From Synergistaceae bacterium (GTDB taxonomy: Bacteria > Synergistota > Synergistia > Synergistales > Aminobacteriaceae): a stretch of 50,347 nucleotides of DNA. The translations under genes were made by a program, and so were the position numbers. The stretch is from NCBI GenBank assembly GCA_017448685.1, contig JAFSKY010000124.1, positions 1 to 50,347 on the forward strand, read 5' to 3'. Positions 17,084-23,572 of the stretch are shown here, one piece after another. Under the pieces are notes generated by a model. The model was not told the origin of the DNA, did not search any database, and worked only from the letters and a program-made list of their open reading frames with translations. How positions within the stretch are numbered: the stretch's first letter is position 1; each line of letters begins with the position of its first letter.

Positions 17084-17701
17084 TTACTTCGTGCGAGTTT
17101 TCCGGCGTTTTGTCTCATATTGTTGCAACATGTCGGAAAGCCTGCTGTCAGTCTCAGTATTGCCTTCAAAGCGCGGAGATTGTTCATCTTTCCTCATGCT
17201 AAGGTCTTCGGATAAGACTGTGTTTTGCGAGACATAAGACTTGAAGATAGTACCTGCCTCGACAACCGCGTTCGTCCCCCTGAAGAATATAGCCAGCGGT
17301 GAAACAAGAAGCGCACCTGCCACAACTGCCCCTGTGCTGTTACTGCCATCACTTTCCTTGCTTGCCGTGAGCGGAATAACTTTCCCGTTATAGGCCTCAA
17401 CAGAGTCAACAGTGAAGGCTAATTCTCCGCCAGTGCCGAATAACCCCGCCTGAGATGCTTTCGTTACAGTGGCATAAGCAAACGCACCCTGCTCAATCAC
17501 CGTAAAACCATCCTCATTCTTCACGGCTCTCTCTACAATTAACTGTATCGTCTGGCCTCTGGAAATCTTATTTGACTTTATCCGTTCCATGACCTTAACC
17601 AGAACTTCAGTTCCTCTCTTCACAGAAATATCTTGCGCAAAGGATACAGCGGGTACAAGAATAACCAGCAACAAAGCAGGCAACAGCAGACACCTTTTCA
17701 C
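17084..17701 (-). CDS. Secreted hypothetical protein
   Basis: Signal peptide [24 protein letters not shown] recognise no family. Confidence 0.6.
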
Positions 17702-17781: not shown

Positions 17782-20133
17782 TCATATCACCGCAAGCATG
17801 ACCCATCGCGTAATCATGGCCGCAATCCACGCTATAACACACTGCCACACGACAACGCCAAATGCCCATTTCCCGCCCATCTCACGACGAATCGAAGCCA
17901 CAGCCGCCGCGCATGGAGTGTACAGTAAGCTGAACACGAGCAGAGATGCCGCAGACACAGCCGGAATCACAGACGCAACATTGCTCCCGAAAAGAACCTC
18001 AAGAGTTGACACAACACTTTCTTTTGCGAGGAAGCCACATATTAGTGATGTGCATATCCTCCAATCCCCAAGCCCTAAAGGTTGGAACAATGGCACTATT
18101 ATTCCTGACACAGCCGCGAGAATGCTCCCGTCTTGATTGGCCGCAAGCCTCATGTGAAGGTCAAAGCTCTGCAAGAACCATATCACCACCGTAGCCACGA
18201 ATATCACAGAGAATGCACGCTGTATGAAGTCTTTTGCCTTCTCCCACATTAACATTGCAACAGTCCTCGCGCCGGGCATACGGTAATTCGGAAGCTCCAT
18301 CACAAAGGGTACAGCCTCGCCACGAAATAGCGTATTTCTGTACAGTAGCGCAACAAGAATCCCCATGACGATTCCCAACACATAAAGCCCCGTCATGATT
18401 AGCCCTTCATGCGCAGGGAAAAACGCATCGACAAAGAACGCGTATATGGGAAGTTTTGCGGTGCAGCTCATGAACGGAGTCAGTAATATCGTCATACGGC
18501 GGTCGCGCTCACTGGGAAGGGTTCGTGTTGACATTACAGCAGGAACTGTACAGCCGAATCCTATCAGCATAGGGACAATGCTACGACCTGAGAGTCCGAT
18601 TTTGCGCAACAACTTATCCATGAAGAACGCTACACGCGCCGTGTATCCTGTGTCTTCAAGAATCGACAGGAAGAAGAACAGCGTGATTATTATAGGTAGG
18701 AATGAGAGTACGCTCCCAATTCCGGCAAAAACGCCGTCAATAATGAAGCCGTGAATGACATCATTGACTCCCATTGCCGTCAAGAATGAGTCAGTATGTT
18801 CCGTGAGAGCCTCAATCCATCCTTCAAGGACTTCCTGAAAGTATGCGCCAATAACCTCAAACGTAAGCCAGAATATTCCGGCCATGACAGCAAGAAACAC
18901 AGGGATTGCCGTATATTTCCCCGTCAATATGCTGTCGAGCCTCTGACTCCTCAAATGTTCGCGACTCTCTTGTGGCTTCACGACAGACTCAGCGCACACA
19001 CGCTCAATGAATGCGAATCTCATCTCGGCTATTGCGGCGTTGCGGTCTAATCCTCGCTCATGTTCCATCTGAACGATAATATGCTCTAACATTTCACGCT
19101 CGTTCTGCTCAAGTTTGAGGCTCTGAATCACAAGCGCATCATTCTCTATCACCTTGACCGCCGCGAAACGTAACGGGATATTTGCGCGTTCTGCGTGATC
19201 CTGTATGAGGTGTGATATTGCGTGAATTGCACGGTGTACCGCTCCTCCGTGATCGTTCTCGTTGCAGAAATCATAGCGGGAAGGTTTCTCCTGATACTTT
19301 GCAATGTGTACAGCGTGATTCACGAGTTCGTCAACGCCCTCATTCTTTAACGCCGATATAGGCACAACAGGAACTCCAAGCAAAGACTCCATGCGGTTAA
19401 TGTCAACAGTTCCTCCGTTACCGCTCAATTCGTCCATCATGTTCAAGGCTATCACTGTTGGAATTTGCATCTCCAATAGTTGAACGGTCAAATACAGATT
19501 GCGCTCAATGTTCGTTGCGTCAACGATATTGATTACGGCTTTGGGCTTCTCGTTGAGTATGAAGTTACGTGAGACTATTTCCTCGCCGCTGTAAGGGGAC
19601 ATTGAGTATATGCCCGGCAAGTCTGTAATGAGCGTATCAGGATGCCCGCGTATGATTCCGTCTTTGCGGTCAACAGTAACGCCCGGAAAATTTCCGACTC
19701 TCTGGCTTGCTCCTGTCAGCTGATTGAAGAGTGTAGTTTTGCCGGAATTTTGGTTGCCTGCCAGCGCGAATGTGAGAGTTGTTCCTTCAGGGAGTGGCTC
19801 AGATTCTCCGGGAACGTGATACTTGCCTTCCTCGCCTAGTCCGGGATGCTCTATGCTGTGAAGGGCGTTGATGAATCTCCCGGCAGCTTCCGTGTCATTG
19901 GCTGGCCTAACTGTGATTCTTGATGCGTCCGCAGCCCTCAGTGTAAGCTCATAGTCATGTATCCTGAACTCTAGCGGATCTCCCATAGGTGCGGGGCGTA
20001 TCATCTTGACCCTTGCGCCGGGTATTATCCCCATGTCCAAAAGGTGCTGGCGTAAGTGGCCTGAGCCGCCTACAGAATCGATAATTGCACTCTCGTTGAC
20101 GTTCAAGTCGCGGAGAGTCATAGCTTCGTTCAT
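17782..20133 (-). CDS. feoB: Ferrous iron transporter, FeoA-FeoB fusion
   Basis: An N-terminal FeoA-like domain (LRDLNVNESAIIDSV...GIIPGARVKMI) is followed by the G-domain GNQNSGKTTLFN, DLPG, NMMD and a polytopic C-terminus. I chose ATG 20133. Confidence 0.9.
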   Translation of the reverse strand: MNEAMTLRDLNVNESAIIDSVGGSGHLRQHLLDMGIIPGARVKMIRPAPMGDPLEFRIHDYELTLRAADASRITVRPANDTEAAGRFINALHSIEHPGLGEEGKYHVPGESEPLPEGTTLTFALAGNQNSGKTTLFNQLTGASQRVGNFPGVTVDRKDGIIRGHPDTLITDLPGIYSMSPYSGEEIVSRNFILNEKPKAVINIVDATNIERNLYLTVQLLEMQIPTVIALNMMDELSGNGGTVDINRMESLLGVPVVPISALKNEGVDELVNHAVHIAKYQEKPSRYDFCNENDHGGAVHRAIHAISHLIQDHAERANIPLRFAAVKVIENDALVIQSLKLEQNEREMLEHIIVQMEHERGLDRNAAIAEMRFAFIERVCAESVVKPQESREHLRSQRLDSILTGKYTAIPVFLAVMAGIFWLTFEVIGAYFQEVLEGWIEALTEHTDSFLTAMGVNDVIHGFIIDGVFAGIGSVLSFLPIIITLFFFLSILEDTGYTARVAFFMDKLLRKIGLSGRSIVPMLIGFGCTVPAVMSTRTLPSERDRRMTILLTPFMSCTAKLPIYAFFVDAFFPAHEGLIMTGLYVLGIVMGILVALLYRNTLFRGEAVPFVMELPNYRMPGARTVAMLMWEKAKDFIQRAFSVIFVATVVIWFLQSFDLHMRLAANQDGSILAAVSGIIVPLFQPLGLGDWRICTSLICGFLAKESVVSTLEVLFGSNVASVIPAVSAASLLVFSLLYTPCAAAVASIRREMGGKWAFGVVVWQCVIAWIAAMITRWVMLAVI

Positions 20134-20281
20134 GTTTGATTCCCCCAAAAAGTTGTGATGAATGAATTATATCGTTAAATTTGCGGATTCGTTGCGGGAA
20201 GCAAAACACCCCCTAAGTGCGTATGTTTAGTGTCGTATGCTTTTGCGCGTAACAAAATCTGAATATTACGGAGGCAGCTTC

Positions 20282-21241
20282 ATGGAAGATAATCACGATA
20301 TATTTCGCGAAGTAAGCGAAGGAATCCAGAAGTCAGACATTGGCGAGGCGGAAAAGAAAAAGGTCTTTGACATCCTGCTTAACATGCGCAATCAGAAAAT
20401 CAACCTCATGATTACTGGCGGGACAGGCGTGGGCAAAAGCTCAACCATCAACGCGCTTTTCGGGCGTGAGATTTCGAGGGTAGGCATTCACGCAGAGCCT
20501 GAGACGATGGAAATCAGCAAATACGAGCTGAACGACAAAATCACTTTGTGGGACTCTCCTGGACTCGGCGATGGAATGAAGGACACTGAACACGCACGGA
20601 AGATTGTTGACCTTCTTCACCGCAAAGACTCTTCAGGCGCGTACATGATTGACCTTGTGCTTGTGATAGTTGATGCCGCGTCAAGGGATTTGGGAACGAC
20701 ATACAGCCTAATCAGTGATGTGATTGTGCCGAATTTGGGCGATGATAACGACAAGAGAACGCGAATCATTGCCGCCCTCAACAAATGCGATGCTGTAATG
20801 CCGAGACACTGGGACTACACCAACAGCAGGCCGGACGCGAAACTCACAGCGGAGCTTGACAGCAGGGCAGACACTTTCAGGCGTAGGGTCAAGGAGACGA
20901 CCGGTGTTGACGTTGACACGATGTACTACTCAGCGGGCTACAAGGAGGACGATAACGGAGAGCAAGATAAGCCGTACAACCTCGCAAAATTATTGTCGCT
21001 CATACTCAATCACACCCCCGACAAGAAACGCCTTGTGCTGATGGATAACGTTTCAAGGGACAAAGAAGCATGGAAGAGTAATGACAGAGATTACAGCAAA
21101 GACATTCGGGACTCAGTGAGCAAAGGCATCAGAGCCACAGCAGGAGCTGTAACGGGCGCGAAAATAGGAGCTACGATAGCCGGACCTATTGGTGCTGTTG
21201 TTGGAGGCATTATAGGCGGTATAGTTGGCTGGTTCTGGTGA
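20282..21241 (+). CDS. Small TRAFAC GTPase (YfjP/YeeP-like) with a C-terminal glycine-zipper hydrophobic tail
   Basis: GGAGG RBS. G1 is GGTGVGKSS, G3 is WDSPGLGD and G4 is NKCD. The tail reads GAVTGAKIGATIAGPIGAVVGGIIGGIVGWFW. Confidence 0.8.
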   Translation: MEDNHDIFREVSEGIQKSDIGEAEKKKVFDILLNMRNQKINLMITGGTGVGKSSTINALFGREISRVGIHAEPETMEISKYELNDKITLWDSPGLGDGMKDTEHARKIVDLLHRKDSSGAYMIDLVLVIVDAASRDLGTTYSLISDVIVPNLGDDNDKRTRIIAALNKCDAVMPRHWDYTNSRPDAKLTAELDSRADTFRRRVKETTGVDVDTMYYSAGYKEDDNGEQDKPYNLAKLLSLILNHTPDKKRLVLMDNVSRDKEAWKSNDRDYSKDIRDSVSKGIRATAGAVTGAKIGATIAGPIGAVVGGIIGGIVGWFW

Positions 21242-21247
21242 TGTAAC

Positions 21248-21922
21248 ATGCTCAGGGAGTACAGGCTACATGACATTGACAGCAGGCTTCACAGAATGGG
21301 GGCGCGTCCTCTTGACGTGATGTTAATCGGCGGAACTGGCACGGGGAAATCCACAACCCTCAACGCAATATTTCAGACTGACACGGCAAAAGTAGGTCAT
21401 AGCTTCGCGCCTGAAACTATGAACGTCAGCGACCACATGCTTAACGACATTTTCCGCCTTTGGGACACACCGGGCCTCGGCGATGGTTTCGACAACGACA
21501 AATCACACGTCAGGAAAATCACGGAGCTTCTGCACAAACCATACGGCAAATACAACGAGTACGGGATAATCGACCTTGCGCTTGTTGTGGTTGACGCAAG
21601 CACGAGGGACTTGGGGACAGTCTATAGCCTCATTGCTGACGTATTGCTCCCTAACATCAACGCCGACAGAATATTGACGGTCATCAACCAATGCGACATG
21701 GCCATGAGCGGACGACACTGGGATTTTTACAGCAATACCCCCGACTCCGCGCTAAAAGCCTTCCTTGATGAGCAGGCAGAGTCAATCCGCAGACGAATCC
21801 GCGAAACTACAGGCGTGAATATCATCCTCCCGGTGTATTACTCAGCGGAATACGGCTACAACATCGAGAAGGTGCTTGACCTGATTATTGACCATATACC
21901 AAAGGAGTGCAGAAAATTGTAG
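21248..21922 (+). CDS. Small TRAFAC GTPase, paralog 2
   Basis: Motifs GGTGTGKST, WDTPGLGD and NQCD. It starts 6 nt after the previous stop. Confidence 0.8.
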   Translation: MLREYRLHDIDSRLHRMGARPLDVMLIGGTGTGKSTTLNAIFQTDTAKVGHSFAPETMNVSDHMLNDIFRLWDTPGLGDGFDNDKSHVRKITELLHKPYGKYNEYGIIDLALVVVDASTRDLGTVYSLIADVLLPNINADRILTVINQCDMAMSGRHWDFYSNTPDSALKAFLDEQAESIRRRIRETTGVNIILPVYYSAEYGYNIEKVLDLIIDHIPKECRKL

Positions 21923-21935
21923 GGGCGGTGAGGCT

Positions 21936-22700
21936 ATGAGACTATCAGAATATAGGCTTCAGGACATTGAAGACAAAGTGCAAAGAATGCAGGCGCGTCC
22001 TCTTGACGTTATGCTAATCGGCGCAACAGGTACAGGCAAATCCACGACTCTTAACGCGCTCTTTGGGAGTGAACGTGCAAAAGTCGGTCATGGCTTCGAC
22101 CCTGAGACAATGAGCATATCAGAACACAAGCTGAATGAAGTTATGCGTCTTTGGGATACTCCCGGGCTTGGCGATAATGCAGAAAAGGACAAAGAGCACG
22201 TGAAGAAAATCGTTAGCAAGCTCCGAGAAACATTTATGGTCTCATTTGAACAGGGATTCAGAGAAGCAGGCAGGTATTTGCATGATGGAGGACACGTAAA
22301 CGATAACTTTTTCGACTTGCTTTGCGGAACATATGGTCTTATTGACTTGGTGCTTGTTGTCATTGACGGCTCAACGCGTGATTTGGGTACGGTCTATAGC
22401 CTCATTGTAGACGTGCTTTTGCCAAACATTCAGGCCGACAGAATCCTGACGGTCATCAATCAGTGCGATATGGCCATGAGCGGAAGGCACTGGGATTTTT
22501 CCCGCAACACCCCCGACTCCGCGCTAAAAGCCTTCCTTGATGAGCAGGCAGAGTCAATCCGCAGACGAATCCGGGAGACTACAGGCGTGAATATCATTCT
22601 CCCTGTGTATTACTCAGCGGAATACGGCTATAACATCGAGAAGGTGCTTGACCTGATAATCGACCATATACCACTGGAACGCAGAAAGCTCACGCGTTAA
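21936..22700 (+). CDS. Small TRAFAC GTPase, paralog 3 (with an internal ~27-aa insertion)
   Basis: Motifs GATGTGKST, WDTPGLGD and NQCD. The C-terminal half is almost identical to paralog 2. I chose ATG 21936. Confidence 0.8.
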   Translation: MRLSEYRLQDIEDKVQRMQARPLDVMLIGATGTGKSTTLNALFGSERAKVGHGFDPETMSISEHKLNEVMRLWDTPGLGDNAEKDKEHVKKIVSKLRETFMVSFEQGFREAGRYLHDGGHVNDNFFDLLCGTYGLIDLVLVVIDGSTRDLGTVYSLIVDVLLPNIQADRILTVINQCDMAMSGRHWDFSRNTPDSALKAFLDEQAESIRRRIRETTGVNIILPVYYSAEYGYNIEKVLDLIIDHIPLERRKLTR

Positions 22701-22806
22701 TTTGATGGTTTGAAGCATGAGGGCTTCCCGGAATTTTACGGGGAGTCCTTTTTGTTTTGGGATGCCAAGCCAGAACCTTAACGCCTCAGAATTTGCGCAT
22801 TACCAC

Positions 22807-22858: not shown

Positions 22859-23572
22859 TTATTCCGCCGTGATATAAAGCTCCTCAGATTCTGTTGCACC
22901 GTCAGAGGATTTCACGCAGACTTTGAAGTCCTCTCGTACAAATTCCGCTGGAAGGATGAACGTTCCATCATCAGAAATTTCGATACTCTTTGCGGGTACA
23001 TCGTCAACGTAAACAGCAGCCCCGGATATTTCCGCGCCTAGAATAAATGTAACGGGCATTCCAGCTTTCACGGTGATTTCGCCTGTCTTGGTACTAATCT
23101 TGAGTCCGTCAGAGAGCAAGCCTCGCGTCATCGTCCATTTGCGTGTGGTTGTTCCGCCCAAGCCTGTTAGCATGAAGCTATAAGGTGCGCGGCGTGTTGC
23201 GTCTGGGATATTCTCGGTGAAAATTGTGGGCTTGCTGACTTGTGGAAGTTCGCCGTTGTAAGCGATTGCAATATTGTCCGGGCAGCCTATGAGATCGATT
23301 CCGTTGAGGCCATTTCCATTGCAGATAAGCCCCATAAGGAACTTGCCCCCGCTAACATTAAGCTCGGCAATTTGGTTTGATTCGTATTCTAGGTTGTATA
23401 TAGCCGTGCATTTGCTGACATTGAGAGTAGTTATTCCATTACTCCAGCAGCCCAATATTGTCAAAGCCGCGTAATTATTCATGTCAAGGGCTTTTATCTG
23501 AATGTCATAGCAATACAGCTCGGTTAAATACGTGTATTTGCTTGCGTCAAGAGCAGTGAGCTGGTTAAAGTA
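22859..23572 (-). pseudogene. 5'-truncated remnant of an LRR / He_PIG surface-protein paralog
   Basis: The frame is open from 23572 with LRR sequence (YFNQLTALDASKYTYLTELYCYDIQIKALD) before the first ATG. There is no signal peptide or RBS. One He_PIG unit is present. The C-terminal domain (...DFKVCVKSSDGATESEELYITAE) matches the end of 4660..9012 (...DFRVRVKSSNGETESQELYIISE). Confidence 0.7.

Follow-up and report, generated by a model that had tools for sequence, protein, structure and literature searches.

The question raised by this locus is what three paralogous small GTPases, encoded back to back in one operon, could be doing together. The window, by which we mean the whole 50,347-nt stretch analysed here (contig JAFSKY010000124.1 of a Synergistaceae bacterium, assembly GCA_017448685.1), carries the three genes on the plus strand: g1 (20282-21241, 319 amino acids, aa), the "long" GTPase; g2 (21248-21922, 224 aa), a "short" tail-less paralog and the canonical partner of the long subunit; and g3 (21936-22700, 254 aa), a second GTPase of the short type. 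An earlier note, made from the sequence alone, had described this triad and suggested that a membrane-anchored GTPase and its soluble paralogs may form a hetero-oligomer for membrane remodelling or for conflict or defence; the latter is a reasonable reading. Its observation is confirmed by our analysis and its interpretation is partly supported. The answer to which we give about even chances is that the triad elaborates, in three genes, on a mobile two-gene module: a GTPase switch that acts at the membrane, forms hetero-dimers and probably serves in defence or conflict.

Relatives in other genomes show that the conserved unit is a pair and not a trio. Among 5.8 billion proteins searched, 2,851 are related to g1 and 1,810 to g2; where these carry a name at all, they are called "50S ribosome-binding GTPase", "GTPase" or "predicted GTPase"; an exhaustive search of the representatives of 50%-identity clusters returned 205 clusters at E <= 1e-30. 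A scan with one genome per species resulted in 80 loci. At 61 of these, a long gene (~330 aa, with a glycine-zipper tail) and a short gene (~228 aa, tail-less) form a strict same-strand pair, with the short gene downstream in 58 of the 61 cases and a median gap of 3 bp. The remaining loci comprise about ten modified or disrupted pairs, two that are cut by a contig end and about seven solitary long genes, so that the pair is present at roughly 70 of the 80 loci if modified pairs are counted. Both subunits also co-diverge, as the comparison of their distance matrices yields a Mantel r of 0.68 against a maximum of 0.29 in 999 permutations, and natural fusions of a short and a long protein exist (P0013-P0019, P0241). 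Clustering in relatives had been anticipated by the note and was indeed found, whereas the trio did not hold up as the conserved unit: the order long, short, short occurs in none of the 80 other loci examined. We are highly confident that g1 and g2 represent a conserved long-plus-short module of the GTPase superclass described below.

The distribution of this module is broad and patchy. Besides Synergistaceae, it is found in many families of Bacillota, in Betaproteobacteria, Zetaproteobacteria, Campylobacterota, Desulfovibrio, Fibrobacter and spirochaetes, and among the Gammaproteobacteria in Aliivibrio fischeri, Psychromonas, Moraxella and Methylococcaceae. Protein identity across the 80 loci amounts to 42-52% and rises to 67-86% in metagenome-assembled genomes (MAGs) of related Synergistaceae. 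Judged by these sequence comparisons, the module is widespread and horizontally mobile, and we found no prior characterisation of it. Our literature search, which had incomplete coverage and could have missed a recent naming, returned no paper that characterises this GTPase family, and the recent defence-discovery papers contained nothing relevant to it.

To which GTPases do the three proteins belong? Each contains a complete G1 (GGTGVGKSS in g1, GGTGTGKST in g2, GATGTGKST in g3), G3 (WDSPGLGD in g1, WDTPGLGD in g2 and g3) and G4 motif (NKCD in g1, NQCD in g2 and g3), just as the note had read them, and in addition a switch-I PETM and a G5-like YYSA. In Pfam, all three are covered by the generic MMR_HSR1 domain, accompanied by weak matches to IIGP, AIG1, Septin and Dynamin_N. 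For IIGP (PF05049, cut-off 24), g1 and g3 score 27.5 and 27.0 and g2 15.6, with only positions ~4-110 of 375 matched, and a third-type paralog of Clostridium carboxidivorans reaches 50.1 with the same model. Scores for AIG1 (PF04548, cut-off 27) are borderline (27.4 for g1, 26.2 for g3 and 23.2 for g2), and those for Septin (PF00735: 23.5, 24.9 and 23.4) lie below the cut-off of 26.2. No NCBIfam model comes near its cut-off for any of the three proteins; g1 matches best to the LeoA/HP0731 dynamin-like model, over ~90 residues at its N-terminus and with 36.6 bits against a cut-off of 325, and weak matches to TIGR00993 (Toc86/159) and SRPRB were also seen. Likewise, PADLOC-DB v2.0.0 contains no full-length defence-protein match, apart from which there are partial matches to LeoA/LeoBC and weak P-loop matches to mad8, PtuA and HerA.

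Comparisons with known structures are in line with this picture. When compared with sequences from the PDB, the profile of the long family places IRGB10 and Irga6 on top (E 2e-8), aligned from the helix preceding G1 to G3, and the profile of the short family places septin-3 (E 4e-8) and IRGB10 on top. AlphaFold2 (AF2) models of g1 (mean predicted local distance difference test, pLDDT, 75.9; predicted template modelling score, pTM, 0.79) and g3 (pLDDT 80.6, pTM 0.82) consist of a G domain and short terminal helices only. In Foldseek, the top matches are Toc34 (with the best E-values, 1e-7), Irga6, LeoA and IRGB10 for g1, and Irga6 and Toc34/Toc33 for g3 (Toc33/34 at TMq 0.55-0.60 and TMt 0.55-0.62); GM4951 is also among the best structural matches, and both models share a Toc34-like fold over the whole protein. 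Thus, the fold matches Toc34, IRG and LeoA, and the closest relatives are IRG, Toc34, GIMAP and septin proteins and not Era-like GTPases. Because of the Pfam, NCBIfam, PADLOC, PDB-profile and Foldseek results, we place g1-g3, as far as profiles and models can tell, in the septin-like/Toc34/AIG1-GIMAP/IRG superclass of TRAFAC GTPases, and they are clear members of none of those families.

Two alternative functions can be weighed directly on these data. The public name "50S ribosome-binding GTPase", which is derived from the generic MMR_HSR1 match in Pfam, would make the proteins ordinary ribosome-assembly or housekeeping GTPases. This possibility is effectively refuted: with the NCBIfam equivalog models of Era, Der, YlqF, YqeH, YsxC, HflX, RsgA and MnmE, the three proteins reach 14-32 bits and fall far short of the cut-offs of 100-483, Pfam revealed in them no accessory RNA- or ribosome-binding domain (KH, S1/OB or zinc finger), and the patchy spread, the carriage on plasmids and the glycine-zipper tail do not suit such a function either. 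The view of the note that neither a recognisable effector domain nor a housekeeping family of the Era/Der/HflX kind is involved has therefore survived. Alternatively, the pair could be a receptor or targeting system for protein insertion or translocation, similar to Toc34/Toc159 or SRP/FtsY (signal recognition particle and its receptor), and would then serve some cargo. The best size-matched structures, Toc33/Toc34 (TM 0.57-0.62), are indeed C-terminally anchored and have a second GTPase as partner, and the weak TIGR00993 and SRPRB matches point in the same direction. However, a conserved third or cargo gene is absent among the 134 nearest neighbours, which spread over 127 Pfam families, translocon components are unlinked, and the distribution is sporadic instead of lineage-wide. 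In consequence, we consider a targeting function very unlikely.

The feature that sets the long subunit apart is its C-terminus. As noted earlier, only the first protein ends in a Gly-rich hydrophobic tail, and we found this to be conserved across the family. In g1 the tail, GAVTGAKIGATIAGPIGAVVGGIIGGIVGWFW, covers residues 288-319 (21143-21238, plus strand) and follows the N-terminal helices, the G domain and a linker with a conserved W-x3-D-x2-Y motif. It reaches a maximal 19-residue Kyte-Doolittle mean of 1.88, contains six overlapping GxxxG motifs and thereby has the period-4 GxxxG spacing and the hydrophobic C-terminus of a glycine-zipper membrane segment. Weak sub-threshold matches to the glycine-zipper models C19orf12, PdsO and YiaD were also obtained. 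Among the long subunits of the family, the tail is nearly universal, has 25% Gly and ends in W or F in 98%; co-occurrence of Gly with Gly peaks at lags 4 (0.17) and 8 (0.14) compared with 0.01-0.09 at other lags. It is missing from g2 and g3 and was never seen in the short subunits of the family. We therefore predict that the tail of g1 is a membrane-associating or membrane-inserting segment. Glycine zippers drive the packing of helices against each other within membranes. For TelE, an effector of the type VII secretion system, membrane-destabilising toxicity requires the C-terminal glycine zipper (PMC10434224). Since zippers pack helices and the zipper of TelE is needed for toxicity, clustering of the tails upon oligomerisation would be a plausible effector step.

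Some variation of this architecture was observed within the family. One subfamily of long GTPases (~445-459 aa; P0070, P0082 and the proteins at L032, L054, L057, L063, L065, L076 and L084) has an extra Cys-rich C-terminal domain of ~110 aa after the glycine zipper (GGCYITTAxCEExGKPDDCYELTxFRxFRDxWL…) without a match in Pfam. In other proteins (P0278, P0313, P0338, P0249, P0356), the long-type GTPase domain is fused to different N-terminal modules, namely DUF3944 plus a hydrophobic segment, a coiled coil plus a Gly/Ala-rich membrane region, or an unassigned domain of ~150 aa. These fusions suggest a modular membrane-associated GTPase cassette.

How could such a pair work? The residue after the glycine of G3 is a Leu (DxPG-L-GD), which is hydrophobic and not the catalytic Gln, and both the long and the short subunit retain all nucleotide-binding motifs. 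After strand 4 lies an (S/T)RD(L/M)G motif whose Arg is shared by at least 90% of the long and short proteins that were aligned. Toc34 and some GIMAPs have a C-terminal hydrophobic anchor, a second paralogous GTPase as partner and an Arg in the G-interface. We take the conserved Arg to lie approximately where AIG1/GIMAP and Toc34 place this interface residue, an equivalence that we can only assume because the profile alignments to PDB sequences end before strand 4. Dimerisation of relatives is evident from the titles of PDB entries, which describe Toc33/Toc159 dimerisation as important for GTPase activity (2j3e), a dimerisation-deficient R130A mutant of Toc33 (3def) and a head-to-head dimer of Irga6 (5fph). 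Because of the lack of the catalytic Gln, the conserved Arg, the dimerising relatives (Toc33/34, Irga6) and the intact motifs in both subunits, we propose that long and short subunits hetero-dimerise via their G domains. According to this model, the glycine zipper of ~40 residues would attach or insert the long subunit at the cytoplasmic membrane, with the short subunit as its obligate partner. GTP would drive the formation of a pseudo-symmetric long-short G-domain heterodimer or oligomer at the membrane, in which the short subunit could act as a co-GTPase-activating protein (co-GAP) or regulator, and the assembly state would control the clustering of the tails. Triggered oligomerisation might then allow the tails to permeabilise the membrane of the cell itself, leading to depolarisation and abortive infection, and the extra short variant g3 might broaden or tune the regulation.

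Signs of a defence role stem from the genomic surroundings of relatives elsewhere. Near the 80 loci, we repeatedly found genes for prokaryotic viperins (pVip, 6 loci, PADLOC 226 bits), Cas1 of type I-C (5 loci), NB-ARC-TPR STAND proteins (6 loci) and WYL/WCX regulators (5-6 loci), and furthermore 1,400-aa kinase-STAND-TPR proteins (3 loci), matches of the MkoA, mad2/6, Cas13d and type I methyltransferase kind, integrases and Mor. Two plasmids provide particularly close associations. On a conjugative plasmid of Vibrio alginolyticus (L089, NZ_CP014052.1, 4188-12816), two GTPase genes and the gene for a PD-(D/E)XK nuclease are inserted between hsdM-hsdS and hsdR of a type I restriction-modification (R-M) operon, and directly upstream an AbiEii toxin gene is found. 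On a plasmid of Photobacterium toruni (L087, NZ_AP024856.1, 6947-14771), the genes downstream of the pair are, in this order, a small one for a hypothetical protein, csm6, cas1 and cas2, another GTPase gene and a member of the dynamin family; on its upstream side are a radical SAM gene and a gene for an HD-domain protein. A phage origin of the module was rejected in view of 0 matches in 50,697 phage records and a single marginal locus in a scan of IMG/VR. Thus, the survey of defence islands suggested by the earlier note gave a divided result, with defence genes near relatives elsewhere and the cluster of the window among housekeeping genes.

Several further observations concern individual neighbourhoods. 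In Synergistaceae and Selenomonadales, a large Ser/Thr-kinase-AAA protein is encoded downstream of the pair on the same strand (L015:4807-9012 and L025:2170-6345, ~1,400 aa with TPR repeats; L043:7708-9687, 660 aa), and at one of these loci a viperin gene lies upstream of the pair (L015:1921-2772, PADLOC pVip, 226 bits). Pair, kinase and viperin may form a larger composite island. Small membrane proteins with DUF697 (PF05128), a domain that is associated with GTPases elsewhere, are encoded beside the pair at 5 loci (for example L060:409-783).

Mobility itself permits another explanation. Pairs are carried by mobilisable and conjugative plasmids beside insertion sequence (IS) elements and toxin-antitoxin genes; in Comamonas, the plasmid-borne pair lies between an IS5 element and a RelE/ParE module. 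The long protein could thus be a latent membrane toxin that the short one neutralises by heterodimerisation, the two of them stabilising mobile DNA like a toxin-antitoxin addiction pair. Tight coupling of the genes, co-diverging partners, the presence of the module among the cargo of mobilisable plasmids, beside IS5 and RelE/ParE genes, and the membrane toxicity that glycine-zipper C-termini can have (PMC10434224) would all fit. On the other hand, a simple antitoxin would have no need of the complete GTPase motifs that are present in both partners, the solitary long genes at about seven of the 80 loci would be lethal if the short subunit were an essential antidote, and in Synergistaceae the module is a vertically stable neighbour of feoAB. 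We therefore regard an addiction pair as distinctly unlikely.

Several of our results weigh against a role of the module in defence. The window and its closest relatives (L006-L008) hold the module beside feoAB amid housekeeping genes (infC-rpmI-rplT-pheST, secG), and no defence gene was detected near it in the window or at these three loci. Many other loci have ordinary neighbours as well, such as genes for PBP2, an acyl-CoA synthetase, flagellin or a histidine kinase. The numbers of defence neighbours given above are raw counts without a background rate, and several of the pVip and kinase loci stem from one related sub-clade and are therefore not independent observations. Neither neighbour clustering over the 80 loci nor a Pfam scan of the 134 nearest neighbours revealed a conserved third partner gene; these neighbours are spread over 127 Pfam families. 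From PADLOC v2.0.0, only the weak and partial LeoA/LeoBC P-loop matches were obtained. Finally, the tail is borderline hydrophobic in most members of the family (median 19-residue Kyte-Doolittle mean 1.44, with 30% reaching 1.6), and AF2 confidence is below 50 across the last 19 residues of g1. Given its modest hydrophobicity, the tail could be a peripheral anchor and not a pore former, which would suit a function in membrane remodelling or repair.

In such a module without immune function, the tail-anchored GTPase and its soluble partner would tether, fuse or stabilise the cytoplasmic membrane under envelope stress, and its spread would reflect niche-specific stress. A membrane role under envelope stress has been proposed for bacterial dynamin-like proteins. 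The kinship in sequence and fold to the membrane-acting GTPases LeoA, IRG, septin and Toc34, a tail that is often only moderately hydrophobic or amphipathic, the stable housekeeping-type site beside feoAB in Synergistaceae and the many non-defence neighbourhoods are all compatible with this explanation. However, the stalk, paddle and helical bundle of dynamin-like proteins are absent (224-319 aa compared with 532-601 positions in LeoA profiles), and the patchy cross-phylum spread at ~45-50% identity, the plasmids and the embedding in R-M, CRISPR and pVip surroundings suit conflict genes better. In sum, we judge remodelling or repair to be unlikely.

A role in defence or conflict is the leading hypothesis, to which we assign slightly less than even chances. 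A bolder proposal, which we put forward tentatively, is that the pair constitutes an unrecognised and widespread prokaryotic immune system, in which a minimal IRG/GIMAP/Toc34-like switch uses its zipper tail as a killing or membrane-depolarising effector. The immunity GTPases with which eukaryotes target membranes would then have a counterpart in bacteria, possibly one related to them by descent, and the extra short paralog in the window would represent diversification of the regulatory subunit. Few machines of defence or of membranes are understood as poorly as the multi-GTPase membrane systems (Eleos/LeoABC in bacteria; IRG, GIMAP and Toc34/159 in eukaryotes), of which the family described here is a stripped-down version with two G domains and a glycine zipper of ~40 residues. 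It occurs in culturable hosts such as Aliivibrio fischeri, Clostridium carboxidivorans, Moraxella bovis and Vibrio alginolyticus. Should the defence role prove true, the module would introduce an effector principle of a new kind, in which a GTPase gates a membrane lesion made by a glycine zipper, and would tie the immunity GTPases of bacteria and eukaryotes more closely together. Otherwise, it would still be a compact model for the mutual regulation of paralogous GTPases at a membrane.

What, then, does the third gene of the window add? The ~27-aa insertion that the note had seen in g3 is real and occupies about residues 101-127 (22236-22316, plus strand), after the helix that follows G3 in the alignment and the AF2 model; it is predicted to be partly helical (residues 104-116 and 125-129) at a pLDDT of 64-74. 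Insertions at the same site, with different sequence, are present at L009 and in P0133-P0136. Related Synergistaceae possess two short subtypes, one like g2 (L008) and one like g3, of which some members carry an insertion, and one MAG holds two separate pairs (L007, L009). The window combines both short subtypes in tandem behind a single long gene. The 3' tracts of g2 (21698-21901) and g3 (22470-22673), both on the plus strand, are 94% identical in DNA over 204 bp, compared with 70% in the rest of both genes, and because of this contrast the two 3' ends appear homogenised, which indicates recent gene conversion between the tandem paralogs. From this we infer that g3 was acquired or duplicated in this lineage as a second partner subunit and that part of the gene was converted later. 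The module has multiplied repeatedly and in varying composition, since other loci build other multi-GTPase sets: at L031, L042, L063, L076 and L029 the third member of a triad is a second glycine-zipper GTPase of ~315 aa beside a long and a short gene, and L045 assembles five of these GTPase genes. In this way, the window lets us see at the DNA level how the module may diversify, by a tandem second and putatively regulatory subunit and partial gene conversion.

The anatomy of the locus otherwise agrees with an operon. The gaps of 6 bp (g1-g2) and 13 bp (g2-g3) between the three same-strand open reading frames (ORFs) are those reported before, and no further copy of g1-g3 was found by phmmer in any reading frame of the window. 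A Shine-Dalgarno-like GGAGG (20270-20274, plus strand) lies 7 nt 5' of the ATG of g1, for which an alternative start at 20237 would give 334 aa. The ATG of g3 is preceded by GGTGAGG, in contrast to the mechanical ORF call, which begins with TTG at 21888. Downstream, a hairpin of 12 pairs (7 of them G-C) followed by TTTGTTTTGG (22719-22760, plus strand; 22719-22750 for the hairpin with its T-run) resembles an intrinsic terminator and closes the three-gene operon, so that the separate terminator claimed by the note is borne out as well. Gene callers recovered the identical trio of this organism on 9 independent metagenome contigs, on all of which it is flanked by feoAB on one side and a 207-aa ORF, a MerR regulator and an SNF transporter on the other, with infC-rpmI-rplT-pheST further out.

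Concerning the immediate flanks, the earlier description was right about feoAB, which lies upstream on the opposite strand (17782-20148, minus strand), whereas its "decayed surface-protein gene" could not be verified: 22859-23482 (minus strand) is an intact 207-aa gene call without a match in Pfam or PADLOC. By eye, the N-terminus of this protein has repeats that resemble leucine-rich repeats (LRR), and a terminator-like hairpin on the minus strand follows the gene (22841-22814). FeoA and FeoB are a single fused protein of 783-788 aa, and the same fusion adjoins the GTPase module in the related Synergistaceae L006-L008. A gene of ~205 aa at 17084-17701 (minus strand) has the look of a lipoprotein or signal-peptide protein, again without a match in Pfam or PADLOC, and together with 22859-23482 (minus strand) brackets the block of feoAB and GTPase genes.

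The question of what the module is can finally be approached by comparison with known systems, beginning with the family to which the note had likened it, the YfjP/YeeP/YkfA GTPases of E. coli. Here, a distant homology of the G domain stands (hhalign probability 97.7%, 28% over 139 columns of 287 residues; BLASTP of YfjP 36% over 109 aa for g1 and 24% over 165 aa for g2), and YfjP shares an R-x-L motif after strand 4 and a hydrophobic tail with an aromatic terminus (…VARAVWDFFF). In contrast, G4, tail type and partner do not correspond: at G4, YfjP reads SQSD instead of N(K/Q)xD, its tail is not a glycine zipper, its C-terminal half does not align, with the identity of 28-36% confined to the G1-G4 region, and its neighbour is yfjQ (DUF932) instead of an adjacent short paralog. 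A DUF932 gene is not among the recurrent neighbours in the window and the 80 related loci, and a DNA-level match was not found in 5,426 E. coli genomes. Membership in the YfjP/YeeP/YkfA family is therefore rejected on account of the partial BLASTP and hhalign alignments and the differing gene context. In the CP4-57 element of E. coli K-12 (L001, 1-6574), yfjP lies directly downstream of the rnlAB toxin-antitoxin and abpAB anti-phage genes, and hence this distant relative, too, resides in a defence-rich island.

Among the eukaryotic GTPases, the IRG proteins (Irga6/IIGP1, IRGB10, Irgb6) are the top PDB profile matches of the long subunit, rank near the top for the short one and are among the top Foldseek matches. 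IRGs act at membranes, include regulator and effector paralogs and dimerise via their G domains (as in 5fph). The differences are substantial: the window proteins match no more than about a quarter of the IIGP profile, at its start (4-110 of 375), the IRG C-terminal helical domain is missing, as the profile is unmatched beyond position 110 and the window proteins are 100-190 residues shorter, and IRGs attach by myristoylation or an amphipathic helix, the long subunit presumably by its C-terminal glycine zipper. Moreover, the genes of the module are bacterial, are organised in an operon and encode proteins of 224-330 aa. Toc33/34 offers the best size-matched fold similarity (TM 0.57-0.62 for g3), but in comparison with Toc34 and AIG1/GIMAP the sequence identity is only 12-18% and a link to a translocon is lacking. 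Septins, membrane-associated hetero-oligomeric GTPases, are the top profile match of the short subunit, and there is no sign of the septin unique element or of filament interfaces in the window GTPases.

A further parallel in organisation comes from bacteria. In Eleos, LeoA/LeoBC are two or three paralogous membrane-associated GTPases that are encoded in an operon and have a role in defence, and their homology to GIMAPs has been noted (bioRxiv 10.1101/2022.12.12.520048). The N-termini of the G domains of LeoA/LeoBC (Eleos and LeoABC of enterotoxigenic E. coli, ETEC) are the best PADLOC and NCBIfam matches of all three window proteins, and LeoA (4aur) is among their top fold matches. Nevertheless, the match scores of 20-43 bits are confined to ~70-90 residues around the P-loop, and the window proteins are at most half as long and have no stalk, paddle or helical bundle in the AF2 models. 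Membership is rejected accordingly, with 20-37 bits for NF041922 (cut-off 325) and PADLOC matches over ~70-95 residues of profiles with 559-601 positions. Unlike in LeoA/LeoBC, the effector element of the module is likely to be its glycine-zipper tail. Toc34/Toc159, GIMAP2/GIMAP7, Eleos LeoA/LeoBC and the IRG regulator/effector sets can all be likened to the module as two-GTPase membrane systems, and it is a clear member of none of them. It is best described as a variant among the membrane-associated, dimerising multi-GTPase systems.

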